Assembly (NCBI GenBank): GCA_030295235.1
Contig: AP026129.1
Span: forward strand, 372,001 to 436,000
Reading direction: 5' to 3'
DNA from: Fistulifera solaris
Taxonomy: Eukaryota
DNA: 64,000 nt
In this document: one piece after another, positions 66 through 12,521 of the stretch
Numbering within the stretch: position 1 is the stretch's first letter
Layout of the letters: each line of letters opens with the position of its first letter
Program-made: the position numbers and the translations under genes
Notes under the pieces: generated by a model
Told to the model about the DNA's origin: nothing
Seen by the model: only the letters and a program-made list of their open reading frames with translations
The model's database searches: none

Positions 66-402
66 AAATTGAATGTAGAGGATAGAGCCAGTTAAAATTT
101 AAGTTGACTTGTTACGGGCATCACCTCCTTTTCTAAATGACCACGCATCATAATCTTTATCGTTGGTTTGATCGTTAAATAATAATGAGTGCCAGCTAGA
201 ACAAATCGTGCGTGACACGTCATCAGGTAATGAGTCTGCTTCCTCCGATCTTGCGGATCTTGTGAATTTTCGCCGACCCGTCTTTCGTCAACCATGCGTC
301 ATGCGTCACCTACCACAGCCACATAAAAACTAAAGAAACCATTCTTCGCTTTTCGACATCCACCGCTTGACATTTCCTACAATACCAATAGTGCTTCTTA
401 CC

Positions 403-1750
403 ATGATCTCCAAGCAATTCATTTCTCGTCTAGGACGACAGTCTCAAAAGTTCTCGACAAGATGGCAGAGTACTAGTCCATTTGCGGCGTACGAGATGGC
501 ACCTTTAGATCCGATTATTGGCTTGAACGAAGAGTTTCAGCGCGACGACTTTCCTCAAAAGGTCATCGTCGGCGTCGGTGCCTATCGTGACGATGCCGGC
601 AAGCCATACGTTCTTCCGTGTGTTCGCGAAGCGGAACAAAGACTCGTTGATCAGAAACTGGACATGGAATATTCCGGAATTGTAAGTTGACGCGTCGTGT
701 CGACCCGTCGTTTTTTCGACACTTTTCAGAATACTTACAAACGCACCTACGGTTATATAGGCCGGAGACCAAAAGTTTGTGGACCTTTCCCTCAAATTTG
801 GGTACGGAGAAGATTCCGGCGCTTTGAAAGAAGGACGAATTCAAGGTGTTCAGGCCCTTTCGGGGACCGGTGGTCTCCGCGTTTTCGGTGAAATGATTCG
901 TCGTCATGGACACAAACACATTTACGTACCCAATCCAACATGGGGAAATCACATCCCCATCTTTCAAAATTCTGGCCTCGAAGTTCGAAAGTACAGATAT
1001 TACGATGCCAGCAATAGCAGTTTAGACTTTGACGGCATGATCAAAGATATACAAGATATCCCTGCCGGAAGTTGTGTTTTGTTGCATGCCTGTGCCCACA
1101 ATCCTACCGGAATGGACCCCACGCTGGAGCAATGGAAGCAATTGTCGGAGCTGTTCAAGAAAAAACAACTTTTCCCTTTCTTCGATGCTGCCTACCAGGG
1201 CTTTGCTTCGGGCGATGCTATTCTCGACGCCGCTTCGTTGCGCATGTTTGTTGACGACGGACATCTTTTGGGCACTATTCAATCGTTCTCGAAAAATTTT
1301 GGATTGTACGGTCATCGTGTTGGTACGCTCTCGGTGGTGGGTAGCAATGCGGAAGAAGCCGCGCGTGTTGTGTCACAGATGAAAATGGTGATCCGTCCCA
1401 TGTACTCGAACCCGCCTCGCCACGGTGCCCGCATTGTCTCCACGATTTTGGACGACCCAAAATTGAAAAGTGATTTCTATGAACAATGCAAGGGGATGGC
1501 CGATCGTATGAATACTATGCGCACGAAACTGCGAGATGAACTAGAAGCAGTCGGGTCGACTCGCAACTGGGACCACATTGTGAAACAGATCGGGATGTTT
1601 GCCTACTCTGGTCTGAACAAAGAGCAAGTAATGGAAATGCGATCCAAACACCATCTGTATTGCACAGCGGACGGTCGTATTAGCATGGCCGGTGTCACGA
1701 CTGGCAACGTTTCATACATTGCGAATGCCATGCATGATGTATCCAAGTAA
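403..1750 (+). CDS. GOT2: Aspartate aminotransferase, mitochondrial
   Basis: Exon 403-681, GT-AG intron 682-760, exon 761-1750. Motifs DPIIG, GVGAYRD, QALSGTG, NPTWGNH, HACAHNPTG, AYQGFASG, PLP lysine in QSFSKNFGLYG, GRIS. R/S-rich acid-free N-terminal presequence. Confidence 0.95.
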
Positions 1751-1890
1751 ATTTATCTATTGCCATACTTTTCGCGTCAATAAAGTGATTGAATAATAGA
1801 CCTCTAATTATATTTTGCTGTAATGGAACTCTGTATTCTATGCATGTATGAAAATCCGATCTAAGCCGCCTTTGCGCGATTTTGGTGCGA

Positions 1891-3427
1891 TTATTCGAAA
1901 CGTTCCGTAAAAGTATTGAGGGTGTCATGAAAAGCCTTTACATCATCTTGGTCAAGCTCGAGCTCGTAGCGAGCAACTACGGAAGGTCTCTTAAGATCCA
2001 TACGACGAGCAATGTCACTCGGCGTGCCGAATATAATGGTGTCGCATTCCACAGCATGGATGGTTGCTTCTAGATCCTTCACTTGCTCCTTACCGTATCC
2101 CATGGCCGGAAGAACATTCTTCAAATGAGGAAACTTTTCAAACACTTTCTTTAAAGAACCTTGCGCACTGGGACGAGGATCGACAATTTCAGAAGCACCA
2201 AGGTCTGTGGCTAGAACATAACCTGCTCCATACACCATGCCACCGTGAGTCAGTGTCGGTCCGTCGTCGATCACGAGGACGCGCTTGCCCTTGACCAAGT
2301 TAGAAGCCTCTTCAGTTTTAAGATCATGGCCCTCAGCTGTGACCACAGACCCCGCCAAGAAGATTGGTGCGTCTGGCTTGGTGATATTCTTCAGTTTTTC
2401 GGCCTGTTTTAGTGCCTTCTCCTTATCGGCTGGGCTATTGACTTTGCAGACTAGAACTACATCTGCCATTCGGACGTTGGTTTCTCCGGGGAAATAACGA
2501 ATTTCGTCGGACGGGCGCAACGAATCTACTAGACAGATGTGTAGGTTTGGCTTGTAGAATGGCAGATCATTGTTTCCTCCATCCCAAATGATAATATCAG
2601 CATCCTTTTCAGCCTCACGAAGAATCATGGGGTAATCAACGCCAGCGAAGAGGAGAGTTCCTTGCTCAATATGACGGAAATATTCTTCGCGCTCCTCAAT
2701 GGTGCAGTCATATTTGTCCATGTCTTCCATCTTTTCGTATCTTTGGCATCGTTGATTCAGCAAGTTCTTGTCGTAAGGCATAGGGTGCCGAATAGCAGCA
2801 ACCTTCATGCCCTTGTCTTTGAAGTACTGCGAGCAAGAGATAGTTTGATAACAGTGAGCACTCATTGTGGCTTTCTCAACCATGATGACGACGTAACATT
2901 CAACGTACCTTTGCCACATATCTTGTCGCCTGTGACTTGCCCACACCCGTCCTACTGGCGCAAACAGAGATGACAGGCTTGCTCGACTCCACCATGGTTA
3001 AGTGAGGAGGAAGTTGGACAAATTTGCATCCAGCAGCGTTAGCCCTCGAAGCGAGAGACTGTACCGTGTCGTAACTCAAGTCCGAGTACGCCATGGCGAC
3101 CGTTGTGGCACCGAAGCGCGCGACGAGTTCTTCCAACTTGTCTTCGGGAAATATTTTGACTCCGTTGGGATAGCGATTGTTGTTCAGGTCGTTGTTACAC
3201 ATTTCGCTGGGGAACGTACGGTCGTCAATGCCTGGAATTTGAGCAGCCGTGAAGCACACCACTTCAACATTTGGCTGTTTCGACCAGTAGGTGATGAAAT
3301 CATGAAAGTCTCGTCCTGCTGCCCCCAAAATAATGACCTTCTCTGTCAACTCATCCTTATGATGGCCAAACGTTTTCACCATAGGGGCGAAGCTCTTTTT
3401 AACTTGTTGGACTGCTCCAGAAAGCAT
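1891..3427 (-). CDS. arcE: Arginine synthetase (ArcE)-like P-loop NTPase, cyclic 2,3-diphosphoglycerate synthetase-like family
   Basis: Exon 3427-2909, GT-AG intron 2908-2827, exon 2826-1891 join in frame (RYVAK|YFKDK). Family motifs KVIILGAAGRDFH, FTAAQIPGI, AYSD, P-loop RTGVGKS, IRHPMPY, CTIEEREEY, AGVDY, WDGGNND, PGETN, DGPTLTHGGM, LPAMGYG, GTP. Confidence 0.85.
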
Positions 3428-3921
3428 GCTGTATGTTTGTTAATGTTTTTCTAATGTTTTCAATTTGTGAGAGGATGATAAAGGAGGCAAAACCTTCCAT
3501 ACATGCCATCACGACTCTTTATGCGAACCCCCTCATTCATTTGTGACATCAAAATGTTGACCCGATGATTACAGTATTTGATTGATGGCTTCTTCTTCGA
3601 TGGGTCTTCTTCGGCAAGGTCGTCGATGGATGGCACGTCTTTTTTGTCAATGCTGCATTGACCCATCGGTACTTATACCACAATGATAATAATATCTTCT
3701 TTCATAATTATGAACCGTCATTTGCGAACTCGAAACGGAAACGCGAACTGAGCCATCAACCACCATCTTGACGAATCATTTGTGTTGTATGAGAAACCAT
3801 TCTTCGGTAAAGAAAGAATGTCGGGTACTTCAGAAATCGGAAGCGACAACCTTGCTTCTCATAAATAATTATTTGATCCTTTTCAAATTGAAACAGAGAA
3901 CATCGGCGTTTGTCATTCATC
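3428..3921. promoter_or_regulatory. Probable bidirectional promoter shared by the arcE-like and carbamate kinase genes
   Basis: ~490 bp between two divergent ATGs (3427 on -, 3922 on +); no convincing ORF. Confidence 0.5.
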
Positions 3922-5044
3922 ATGCTTTCCCGATCGTTGCGAAATGTCGGCCGATTTATGAGCCGTGCAAGAATTCCAGCGGTAACAGCCAAATACATGT
4001 CGTCCAACATGAATGATCATATTGTAATTGCGCTTGGTGGGAATGCTTTGTTAAAAAGAGGAGAAAAACATGACCATATCCAATCAGCGACACAACATCC
4101 GAGACGGCATGCAATCCTTGGCAGACATAGTGCGCAAGCACAAAACGACGATTGTGCATGGAAATGGTCCACAGTAAGTGCCACAACGTATCTCTTTCAT
4201 GACTTGTCGGAGCAGACTTATATTCAAAACCATTAATGTATTCAGGGTGGGCCTGCTCATGTTAGAAAGCGATGCATATGAACGCCAGACGGGTTTGCAA
4301 CAGATATCGCTTGACGTCTTGGATGCCGAGACAGAAGGAATGATCGGTTACATGATCGAACAGGAGTTACAGCCATACCTTTCTCAAGACCAAGGTATGG
4401 TGACAGTCTTAAGCCAGATTGTCGTGTCACCCGATGACCCATCGATGTTGAATCCAACGAAGTTTGTAGGCCCCGTGTACACTAAAGAAGAAGCGAATAA
4501 ATTATCTGTACCCGTCAAAGCTGACGGAAAATATTTCCGGCGGGTCGTACCCTCACCGCAACCAATCAAGTTGGTTCCGCACCAGCTTCAAGTAGTCCAG
4601 AAACTTACTGATGCTGGTTGTATTGTCATTTGCGGTGGAGGCGGAGGCATACCGGTCGTCGAGAAAGAAGGCAGGTACGAAGGTATCGAGGCCGTCATAG
4701 ACAAAGATCGTGCAGCAACAATGATCGGGAAAGCGATTGGAGCGCAAGGTCTCTTAATTCTGACCGACATTCCAGCAGTAGCCATCCATTACGGAACGGA
4801 ACAACAAAAGTTCATTAAAACGATATCTCCCAATCAACTCGAGACTCTGAAGGATCACTTTCCCGCCGGTTCGATGGGTCCCAAGGTAGAGTCTGCCATT
4901 GATTTTGTTCGACTAACAAATGGCTGGGCAGCCATTGGCTCATTGCAGAATGCTGACGAAATCGTCGCCGGAAAGGCGGGAACCATGGTTCGTGACACTC
5001 CAACAGATGATCCCGTTGTATTTTATGAGAAAGGCGACATATAA
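3922..5044 (+). CDS. arcC: Carbamate kinase with N-terminal mitochondrial-type presequence
   Basis: IVIALGGNALL, HGNGPQ|VG across GT-AG intron 4174-4245, AETEGMIGY, NPTKFVGP, RRVVPSP, GGGGIPV, AVIDKD, GSMGPKV. One extra A in the A-run 4064-4068 shifts frame in exon 1 (likely assembly error). Confidence 0.93.
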
Positions 5045-9936: not shown

Positions 9937-12521
9937 ATGAGAAGAATAAACAGTCTGCTGGTATTGTTGGCCTTCCGAGAAGCGGCGTCGTGGCTAAGGT
10001 GTAACACGATGAGGACACGACCAAAAATAATGACACACTCACAGCACACAAGACAAACAATCTACAAGCAAAGGCACGTCACGGCCAGGCAAAAAGCCGT
10101 TATAACTGCTGCTACAACAATACAATCCGCCATCGAAAGCGAGGAACCGCTCTTGGACCTCAATTTGCTAATGATTGATTACTACGATTCGTTCACTTAC
10201 AATCTGGTTCACATGCTGGCCAAGTTGTGTCGGAAGCCTCCCTTGGTTCTCACGGCGGACTGTGCCAAATCGTGGGACGAGCTTATGAAACAAATCAACG
10301 CTATGAATATGACTGCGATTGATGGAGTCATATTATCCCCTGGTCCGGGCCATCCGTGTCACGCGCCTCCGTTGGGGATCGATATCATCAAGAACAATCC
10401 TCAGCTTCCTATACTGGGTGTGTGCTTAGGACACCAAATACTAGGACATGTGTATGGAGCCAAAGTTCAAAGTGCACCGGTGCCCATTCATGGGCAAGTC
10501 TGGCCTGTGCGCATCGTTGACAAAGACGATGATGTGTGGCGAAACATATCATCTCCTGTGCCAGTTACGCGCTACCATTCGTTGTGTGTCACCGACTTGC
10601 CTCCTTTACTCACAACAACAGCCGTATCCGATGATGACGACCAGCTGATTATGGGACTGCGTCATAACGAGTATCCTCATTATGGAGTGCAATTTCATCC
10701 CGAATCTATCGGCACCCCGTGCGGGCGAGAATTGTTACGAAATTTTTGCCAAGTCGTGGTAAAGAACAAGGAGACGTCGTCTTTGGGCAAGAAAATGGAG
10801 GAAACGAACAGCAGGCATCAACCCTCAACGAATAGCATCGAACATGATGACAGGACGCGCAATTCTGTGTTTTTGGAGACCGAAGTGTTTGTGTTGCAGC
10901 TCCCAAGAGTAAACGCAGAGCCAGAGGATGTCATGAAAAAGTTCTTACTCGGAGATGAGTATTCGTTCTGGTTAGATTCCTCGGACATTCGCGCGGACCC
11001 TTCTATCTCTATTTTGGGAAGCAGTAAAGAGCGTGTTGAATATTGGGGAAAAGAAAAATCATCGCATCGTCAGGGATTGTATCATTGGCACGATAACGAA
11101 ATGGAACATTTCGAGAACCTTGATATTTTGACTTATATGGAGAAGCAATATACGACCACGACAAATTCTGTGTCTATAGTATCCATCGATGCCAATGGCA
11201 ATTTGAACTTGGAAAAGAAACGGAAATGGACTTAAATCTTCCTTTTCGATTCCGCGGAGGTCATGTCGGTTATTTGGGTTATGAAGTCCGACATGATACG
11301 CTTCGATTTCTGGAACAGCAAGATCACGGTCAACACATCGCGGGGCGTATCCAACCCGATGATTCCACCAATATCCCAACAGCAGCTTTTCTCGTAGCCG
11401 ATCGCTCGTTTGTCTTTGATCATTCTGCTAATTGTTGGTACCTTGTTGGGACAAGCGACTCGTCTAGGTCACGCGAAGAGGTTATTATGTGGTTGAAGGA
11501 TATCTTCGATGAGTTACAATGCTGGACTCCGGTCGTCGATGATGACGATCTCAATCTTGATCTGCGAAGTATTAAGAGCTCATCTACAGATTCTCAATTC
11601 TTTCGTCCGCATCGGTCAGAAACCACTTATAATTTCAATTTTGATGAGTGTATAAAGTGCATTAACCGCGGCGATTCCTATGAGCTGTGTCTGACCAATC
11701 AATTGGAAGCTAAGGTATCTCCTGATCTCGATCCCTTTCAGCTCTATCGACGGCTCCGTCGTCGTAACCCTGCTCCTTATGGGGCTTTCTTCCGCTGGGG
11801 AGAGCAATTCTCCATTTGCTGCTCGAGCCCCGAACGTTTCCTCTCGGTGACGCGAGATGGAGTTGACTTTTGCGTCGAGACCAAACCCATCAAGGGAACC
11901 ATTGCGCGAGCTCTTCCTGCTATTACCAAAGAGCAACAAGAAGCCGATCAGGCGCGTGCTCGTGAACTGCAAAACTCAGTGAAAGATCGTGCAGAGAATC
12001 TAATGATTGTTGACTTGTTGCGGAATGACTTTAGTCGCGTCTGCAACGACGTTTATGTCGCCAAGCTAATGGAGATTGAAACGTTTGCGACTGTACATCA
12101 GATGGTATCAACCATTCGAGGAACGCTGCAAAAGGACAGGAATGTGATTGACGTTTTAAAAGCCTGCTTTCCGGGAGGAAGTATGACCGGGGCACCGAAA
12201 CGGATCACTATGGACATCCTCGACGAGCTGGAGGAGGGTCGCGCACGGGGTCCCTATTCGGGTAGCTTGGGATATTTTAGTCGTAATGGATGCATGGACA
12301 TGAACATAGTAATCCGAACGGCTGTAGTGGAAGGATCTAAGGTAACTGTTGGATCCGGTGGTGCAATTACTGCCTTGAGTCAACAGACGGACGAATACAA
12401 TGAGCTCATGTTGAAAGCAAGTGCCGTTGTCAACACCGTCGAGGAATGGGCCGGAGGGCTCCCCGACGACGCAACGCCGTCTGACTGCCGTATTTCTACT
12501 CTCGAAGCCACTCGTATGTAA
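9937..12521 (+). CDS. pabAB: Aminodeoxychorismate synthase (fused PabA-PabB), folate biosynthesis
   Basis: GATase domain IDYYDSFTYN, SPGPG, GVCLGHQ, QFHPES; chorismate-binding domain GYLGYE, SYELCLT, SSPERF, KPIKGT, ENLMIVDLLRND, FPGGSMTGAPK; frameshift at A-run ~11213-11216. Confidence 0.92.

Follow-up and report, generated by a model that had tools for sequence, protein, structure and literature searches.

In a 64-kb stretch of DNA of the diatom Fistulifera solaris, hereafter the window, a gene of the arginine synthetase (ArcE) family stands head to head with a carbamate kinase (arcC) gene. Both genes are intact and transcribed, each carries a spliceosomal intron, both lie among eukaryotic genes, and the two subgenomes of this alga have each retained the pair. 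Going by family membership and by the enzyme characterised in Thermococcus, from which the function of the pathway is inferred, we consider it rather probable that these two nuclear genes of prokaryotic ancestry run, together with the ornithine carbamoyltransferase (OTC) of the urea cycle, a breakdown of arginine that yields two ATP. The locus adds a eukaryotic case to a pathway known since 2024 and is not a novel type of system.

The nitrogen metabolism of diatoms centres on the ornithine-urea cycle, where a bacterial-type carbamate kinase is found without an agreed role and where no enzyme is known to lead from arginine back to citrulline. An ArcE-type enzyme beside the kinase would add a reversible, ATP-coupled step between arginine and citrulline as well as a substrate stream for the kinase, and the pair suggests a substrate-level source of ATP drawn from a nitrogen store. 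On the pathway or on ArcE in diatoms, our literature search found only work of the Atomi group and a database paper.

Structure and transcription of the divergent pair

The window derives from the nuclear DNA of F. solaris, the product of its minus-strand gene being a public diatom protein. The arcE-like gene lies on the minus strand. Its first exon (2909..3427) comprises 173 codons from the ATG at 3427, directly 5' of which stands an in-frame TAA, and encodes the GAAGRDFH and Walker-A-like RTGVGKS motifs; an 82-nt GT..AG intron (2827..2908) separates it from a second exon (1891..2826) of 311 codons and a stop. The spliced product of 484 aa is identical to the public protein P0001 (FisN_21Lh147), exon 1 providing its residues 1-173 and exon 2 matching it with 100% identity.

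On the plus strand, the carbamate kinase gene begins at ATG 3922. Its first exon (3922..4173) encodes an N-terminal extension of some 30 residues, basic and rich in serine, followed by the GGNA loop region, and a 72-nt GT..AG intron of phase 2 (4174..4245) leads to a second exon (4246..5044, to the stop) that matches Pfam AA_kinase (1.1e-14) and NCBIfam NF009008 (1.7e-85, profile positions 54-301). The public 'carbamate kinase' P0121 is the product of this gene, and its accession is consecutive with that of P0001. The two genes thus occupy opposite strands and are transcribed away from each other, with a spacer of 494 bp from ATG to ATG (3428..3921), a candidate bidirectional promoter that also contains both 5' untranslated regions. 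An earlier reading of the same DNA, made from the sequence only, had described a divergent pair with some 490 bp between the start codons, and both genes were found where it had placed them.

Transcript evidence comes from the contigs of four runs (X1-X4) of one 2015 study, aligned to the window. Contigs of X1 cover every one of the 30 bins, with the spacer and the unspliced arcE intron among them; because of this coverage X1 behaves like DNA, and it may be the data from which the assembly was made. In the three other runs (X2, X3 and X4), positions 2827-2908 are skipped exactly, the contigs joining 2826 to 2909. The kinase intron, 4174-4245, is skipped in one of the four runs (X4, whose contig joins 4173 to 4246), and a contig of X3 begins at 4246 with a loose end that matches the end of exon 1. 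Since the RNA-like contigs of X2-X4 join the exons, both genes are transcribed and spliced as modelled. On the kinase side of the spacer, a contig of an RNA run spans 3800-4104. Contigs with about 6% other letters run beside exact ones over both genes and fit the second, homeologous copy of the allodiploid F. solaris.

Some details of the transcript contigs deserve mention in their own right. X2-X4 leave the stretch from roughly 3480 to 3799 uncovered, and the word depth of one gene differs from that of the other; neither feature was used as evidence. A contig of X2 departs from the window at 3397, 29 letters upstream of arcE codon 11, and its frame stays open, which may reflect either the diverged 5' end of the homeolog or an alternative 5' exon. 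At the other end of the gene, an X2 contig omits 3 bases at 1890 (window 1888-1893), at the arcE stop codon, and the homeolog-type ArcE proteins (P0376, P0002, P0379) have a C-terminus that is 9 residues longer.

Reading frame and identity of the kinase

In the window as written, the kinase frame is shifted by +1 between 4064 and 4069: positions 2-17/18 of the NCBIfam carbamate kinase profile share the frame of ATG 3922, and positions 19-52 fall in the one after it. The extra base (4064..4069, plus strand) lies in or beside an A run, and it is only in the window that the kinase frame is broken. The single X1 contig, with a depth of 17 of 17, has one base fewer at 4064, as does one X4 contig; a second X4 contig, of a homeolog-like allele, has one base fewer at 4069. 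Because none of the three contigs that span the site keeps the window's length, the extra base is attributed to an assembly error and the kinase frame is intact. For both homeologs, the public kinase model (300 aa) takes the internal ATG 4070 as its start and is devoid of the N-terminal extension and of the GGNA region; as a result of the assembly error the public F. solaris model is truncated, and it needs correcting before anyone expresses or localises the protein.

The shifted frame, together with the N-terminal truncation of the public kinase model at 300 aa, could suggest that the locus is an artefact, whether bacterial contamination or a dead, frameshifted kinase gene. We give this explanation hardly any credit. 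Contamination was rejected in view of the spliced introns, the flanking eukaryotic genes and the homeologous copy, and a frameshift pseudogene was rejected in view of the three contigs that restore the frame over 4064-4069.

Owing to the extra base, the window's kinase is scored by the NCBIfam profile in pieces of 20, 30.1 and 286.9 bits, which together span profile positions 2-301, the curated cut-off being 361. The full-length relatives P0128, P0133 and P0132 reach 373.5, 375 and 365.2 bits, all three above this cut-off; they share 66-69% identity with exon 2 of the window's kinase and carry 34-50 extra N-terminal residues before the profile match. The earlier identification of the right-hand gene as a carbamate kinase is borne out by both results.

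Membership of the ArcE family

The ArcE family was characterised by Michimori et al. 2024 (PMC11032458) through TK2200 of Thermococcus kodakarensis, an arginine synthetase. According to this paper, ArcE homologs are annotated as 'putative GTPase', some of them lie near arcB and arcC, and arcE homologs occur 'in a few eukaryotes', which are named only in supplementary figures. Neither Pfam nor NCBIfam holds a dedicated ArcE model: the diatom protein gave only a sub-threshold match to CbiA, and the Thermococcus protein only weak P-loop matches.

Direct comparison places the left-hand gene more precisely. P0001 shares 51% identity over 435 aa (E 1e-159) with P0296, a Thermococcus sp. protein that represents a cluster of 201 Thermococcus/Palaeococcus members and that was reached via an Aciduliprofundum relative. 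It is also about 50% identical to the proteins of 159 prokaryotic ArcE-type loci. Across 112 prokaryotic rows, 122 columns are conserved to 95% or more; P0001 retains 108 of them, with the motifs GAAGRDFH, RTGxGKS, RHPMPY, TIEEREEY, WDGGNND and DGPTxTHG, and 93 of the 122 are retained by 90% or more of 62 eukaryote-clade rows. The invariant residues include R159, T160, G161, G163, K164 and S165 of the P-loop.

The predicted structure agrees with this assignment. The AlphaFold2 model of P0001 has a mean pLDDT (predicted local distance difference test) of 90.4 and a predicted template modelling score of 0.88, residues 1-24 having a pLDDT below 50. In Foldseek, its best matches are the cyclic 2,3-diphosphoglycerate (cDPG) synthetase structures of Methanothermus fervidus, 8ORU and 8ORK (E 5.3e-18), followed by LpxK (4ehx/4ehy); 4EHY is the entry with which TK2200 is compared in the ArcE paper (PMC11032458). 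Many databases label the ArcE family as cDPG synthetase, but the identity of these structures to P0001 in the structural alignment is only 15-17%, and P0001 groups with the ArcE rows and not with the M. fervidus enzyme. By sequence, exon 2 matches the solved cDPG synthetase chains at E 1.1e-5 and exon 1 matches no solved structure. Set against the 51% identity to the Thermococcus ArcE cluster, this led us to reject a cDPG synthetase identity. Membership of the left-hand gene in the ArcE family, as first proposed from its sequence, is supported by the identity to the Thermococcus cluster, the 108 conserved columns and the fold neighbours 8oru and 4ehy.

Family membership leaves some room for a change of function. 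The diatom enzyme might have drifted to another ATP-dependent reaction on ureido or guanidino compounds, the kinase serving another source of carbamoyl phosphate, so that the two genes would be linked but would not form an arginine pathway. The diatom ArcE clade is indeed long-branched, 14 of the 122 conserved columns differ in P0001, several of them throughout the clade, and TK2200 is the only characterised member of the family (PMC11032458). This drift is nonetheless improbable in our view, considering the 51% identity to the Thermococcus cluster and the retention of the nucleotide-binding motif and of most family-invariant motifs, together with the specificity of TK2200 for L-arginine among the guanidino compounds tested (PMC11032458).

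Linkage of the pair in diatoms

The pair is present on both subgenomes of F. solaris, with consecutive accessions in each case: GAX10449/GAX10450 on L and GAX16706/GAX16707 (FisN_21Hh147/148) on H. In other genomes, we compared the 'longest contig' values of the 119 ArcE and 114 kinase matches for which one was given and obtained 12 exact agreements for about 1.9 expected by chance. This expectation is dominated by contigs of 1-3 kb, and every agreeing contig measures at least 4,487 nt. Two of the agreements are of F. solaris type and the 10 others are contigs of 4,487 to 285,053 nt, on which identity to the window's proteins ranges over 56-89% for ArcE and 49-83% for the kinase, the two values dropping in parallel. 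Among cluster members, two additional shared contigs (74,860 and 48,307 nt) were found. Linked ArcE rows occur in both diatom subclades of the ArcE tree, and linked kinases are scattered across the eukaryotic kinase clade. A metagenome scan returned 80 loci, 79 of them intron-less and prokaryotic and one a transcript-like contig of 1,674 nt; a search of the viral collection gave no match.

Short-spacer divergent neighbours are common in compact diatom genomes, and their presence in one such genome is not beyond chance alone; it is the recurrence elsewhere that raises the linkage above chance. The adjacency could still be meaningless, the two genes being regulated and used independently, as the broken linkage in Nitzschia inconspicua and Thalassiosira profunda might indicate; the 10-nt word common to both upstream regions, CAAATTGAAA, is a post hoc find. 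Yet the two genes are found together on each subgenome of F. solaris and on 10 other contigs, and members of these two families stand in one operon at 28 of 159 prokaryotic loci, which makes a fortuitous association very improbable. The co-occurrence across diatoms that the sequence-only reading proposed as a check was recovered in part: the linkage is not confined to one assembly, the pair being adjacent on the second subgenome and sharing the 10 further contigs, but it does not hold in N. inconspicua and T. profunda. The arcE and arcC genes are linked in many but not all diatoms.

Prokaryotic context and origin

Among 159 prokaryotic arcE loci, the fetched flanks contain an OTC and/or a carbamate kinase gene in 36 (both in 12, OTC only in 8, kinase only in 16) and neither in 123; a carbamate kinase is thus found in 28 flanks. 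In the subset of 70 loci whose flanks reach 3 kb or more on each side, the kinase is present in 14 and OTC in 13. In all 36 linked loci the partner genes lie on the arcE strand, many of them 39-400 nt downstream, and one Coprothermobacter locus (L129) reads arcE-arcB-arcC by Pfam. The clustering of these genes in prokaryotes, described as frequent in the sequence-only reading, was seen in 36 of the 159 loci and agrees with the pathway as published.

We built ArcE trees with FastTree (174 rows) and IQ-TREE (quick, LG+C20, 56 rows) and a kinase tree with FastTree (141 rows). In both ArcE trees, the eukaryote-type rows form one side of a branch with a support of 100, and the seven members of this clade that are named are all diatoms. 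Two groups can be told apart among them, one of pennate type (Fistulifera, Mayamaea, Nitzschia) and one of centric type (Cyclotella, Stephanocyclus, Thalassiosira, Skeletonema). The rows of Thermococcus and Pyrococcus nest within other prokaryotes, and no specific prokaryotic sister of the diatom clade appears among the sampled rows. Two rows, P0080 and P0081, sit on a long branch as sister to the diatom ArcE clade of 60 rows, with a support of 100 in both trees, and may be non-diatom eukaryotes.

The kinase tree contains one eukaryotic clade, outside of which come, in outward order, an amoebozoan row, proteobacterial kinases and the Chloroflexia kinases of arcE-arcB-arcC loci; the closest prokaryotic relatives of the diatom kinase are proteobacterial. 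A kinase labelled Alexandrium tamarense (P0205) nests in the Thalassiosirales-type group of diatom kinases, a placement that could stem from transfer, from a diatom-derived sequence or from contamination. In one bacterial phylum, 74 of 401 sampled genomes gave an ArcE match. Among the five best ArcE genomes of this phylum, all of which may be incomplete, four gave no kinase with the query used, and the fifth (G242) carries its kinase on another contig than ArcE.

The tree topologies fit a single old acquisition of each gene and indicate nothing firm about a common donor. The idea of a laterally acquired module, put forward in the sequence-only reading, is compatible with the trees as far as one old acquisition per gene is concerned; a shared donor was not borne out, the diatom ArcE clade having no specific prokaryotic sister among the sampled rows and the nearest prokaryotic kinases being proteobacterial. 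The lateral transfer of the diatom kinase from bacteria is also listed by Vancaester et al. (2020 preprint).

A possible arginine pathway in diatoms

In the pathway that we favour, ArcE would act as an ATP-forming arginine deiminase and convert arginine, ADP and Pi into citrulline, NH3 and ATP. The urea-cycle OTC, encoded elsewhere, would split citrulline into ornithine and carbamoyl phosphate, and the kinase would use the latter with ADP to form ATP, CO2 and NH3. The net gain would be two ATP per arginine through substrate-level phosphorylation, the yield given for the pathway in PMC11032458 and PMC13260591. ArcE would fill the step from arginine to citrulline, for which no arginine deiminase (ADI) is known in diatoms. 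Novak et al. 2016 (PMC5052871) did not detect ADI in Sar, recorded carbamate kinase in several diatoms, describing two diatom forms of it, and reported OTC in diatoms. The 'orphan' diatom kinase evoked in the sequence-only reading is consistent with this distribution. A complementary pattern between the arginine synthetase pathway and the classical arginine deiminase was noted by the discoverers of the former. The kinase protein has been detected in the proteomes of Phaeodactylum and Thalassiosira.

The locus itself does not distinguish the catabolic direction from its reverse. In the reverse direction, the kinase would make carbamoyl phosphate from ammonia, CO2 and one ATP, OTC would form citrulline, and ArcE would use one ATP to add another ammonia, yielding arginine. 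Such a route would allow a cheap storage of ammonium as arginine while bypassing carbamoyl phosphate synthetase and argininosuccinate synthetase/lyase. ArcE works in both directions in vitro and sustained the formation of arginine from citrulline in vivo (PMC11032458), and Ban et al. (2023, PMC10328945) describe the kinase, present in diatoms and not in Parmales, as a producer of carbamoyl phosphate. However, the kinase of T. kodakarensis was unable to supply carbamoyl phosphate sufficient for growth (PMC13260591, a 2026 follow-up), the measured equilibrium favours arginine breakdown (PMC11032458), and in diatoms this task also falls to a carbamoyl phosphate synthetase (PMC10328945). We hold the reverse direction to be unlikely, and the catabolic direction, in which arginine nitrogen would be remobilised and ATP made when respiration or light is limiting, appears the more likely.

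The compartment in which the pathway would operate is suggested by the N-termini of the two proteins. The kinase carries the basic, serine-rich extension mentioned above, which contains no acidic residues, and similar extensions of 30-110 residues occur in its relatives. Among the ArcE rows, several of pennate type (P0006-P0009, P0011, P0018, P0019 and P0026) have basic, serine-rich extensions of 38-77 residues, and many centric-type and Nitzschia-type rows (P0045, P0058, P0070 and P0084 among them) have none. The F. solaris ArcE has about 28 extra N-terminal residues, a short and poorly conserved stretch, and the homeolog model starts at the second methionine. The kinase and ArcE extensions may be mitochondrial presequences. 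As such extensions are found in some pennate-type ArcE rows only, the compartment may differ between diatom lineages.

Several points weigh against the arginine-degrading pathway as we propose it. With a mitochondrial-type extension on the kinase and a short one on ArcE, the two enzymes may reside in different compartments in F. solaris, and citrulline may have to cross the mitochondrial membrane. The ArcE reaction lies near equilibrium, with a Keq of about 10 at 80 °C (PMC11032458), so that it might run either way in a mesophilic alga. The diatom ArcE clade is separated by a long branch from all prokaryotic rows, and T. kodakarensis TK2200 is not among the 15 of the 201 cluster members listed, so that the comparison is with its genus-level kin. 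The 64-kb window contains no OTC gene by tblastn and Pfam, in agreement with what had been noticed from the sequence. Outside F. solaris, the same-contig call is founded on identical longest-contig values and not on sequence, orientation and spacing having been read in F. solaris only. Finally, the N. inconspicua genes are not adjacent, their accessions being non-consecutive and their longest contigs different, and arcE and kinase of T. profunda lie on different contigs.

A broader scenario can be entertained more tentatively, and we would not call it probable: diatoms might have inherited linked arcE and arcC genes early, and the pathway that these form with OTC, mitochondrial in some lineages, might deliver two ATP per arginine without respiration. 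If true, it would provide the missing link from arginine to citrulline in the diatom urea cycle and the true job of the 'orphan' carbamate kinase, along with a possible basis for the survival of diatoms in darkness or anoxia.

Comparison with known systems

The closest characterised system is the pathway of T. kodakarensis (ArcE TK2200, ArcB TK0871, ArcC TK2158), with which the F. solaris locus shares the same two families and the same predicted fold neighbours, as well as, probably, the setting of a kinase-bearing organism without classical arginine deiminase. In contrast to those of T. kodakarensis, the F. solaris genes are nuclear, hold one intron each, and are divergent rather than scattered or operonic. 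The F. solaris kinase bears an extension of organelle type, the urea cycle would lend its OTC, and the host is a mesophilic phototroph in which the system is known from its genes.

Physical linkage of arcE and arcC is common to F. solaris and to prokaryotic arcE-arcB-arcC or arcE-arcC operons, such as that of Coprothermobacter. The latter are co-directional in every linked locus, whereas the F. solaris pair is arranged head to head and gives separate transcripts. The ADI pathway of anaerobic protists, Giardia and Trichomonas for example, is likewise eukaryotic, based on arginine and ATP-yielding, with OTC and carbamate kinase, but its first enzyme is unrelated: ADI is hydrolytic and forms no ATP, and it went undetected in Sar, diatoms included (PMC5052871).

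The F. solaris kinase is of the diatom urea-cycle type discussed by Vancaester et al. (2020) and Ban et al. (2023), a type of bacterial origin and unsettled role. The available parts of the literature on the diatom kinase and urea cycle mention neither an ArcE-type partner nor the gene pair, whereas the F. solaris locus pairs the kinase with arcE.

The spacer and its surroundings

The word CAAATTGAAA occurs twice in the spacer, each time in the orientation of the adjoining gene: at 3458..3467 on the minus strand, 31-40 nt upstream of the arcE ATG, and at 3884..3893 on the plus strand, 29-38 nt upstream of the kinase ATG. These are its only copies in the 64-kb window, for 0.57 expected, and 10 of 100 shuffles reach two. 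Found post hoc, the mirrored copies may form a cis element common to both genes.

The rest of the window, in which 29 open reading frames (ORFs) were scanned, consists of ordinary eukaryotic genes, among them TFIIE alpha, COG2, SKA1, inositol polyphosphate kinase (IPK), DAGAT and gamma-glutamyltranspeptidase. Next to arcE, a class I/II aminotransferase gene of at least two coding pieces (367-1750, plus strand) lies in tail-to-tail arrangement with it, the gap to the arcE stop being 140 bp; we saw no sign of its membership in the arcE/arcC module. Further along, at 9937-12521 on the plus strand, adjoining ORFs with glutamine amidotransferase and chorismate-binding domains probably form a single gene of the anthranilate/aminodeoxychorismate synthase type.

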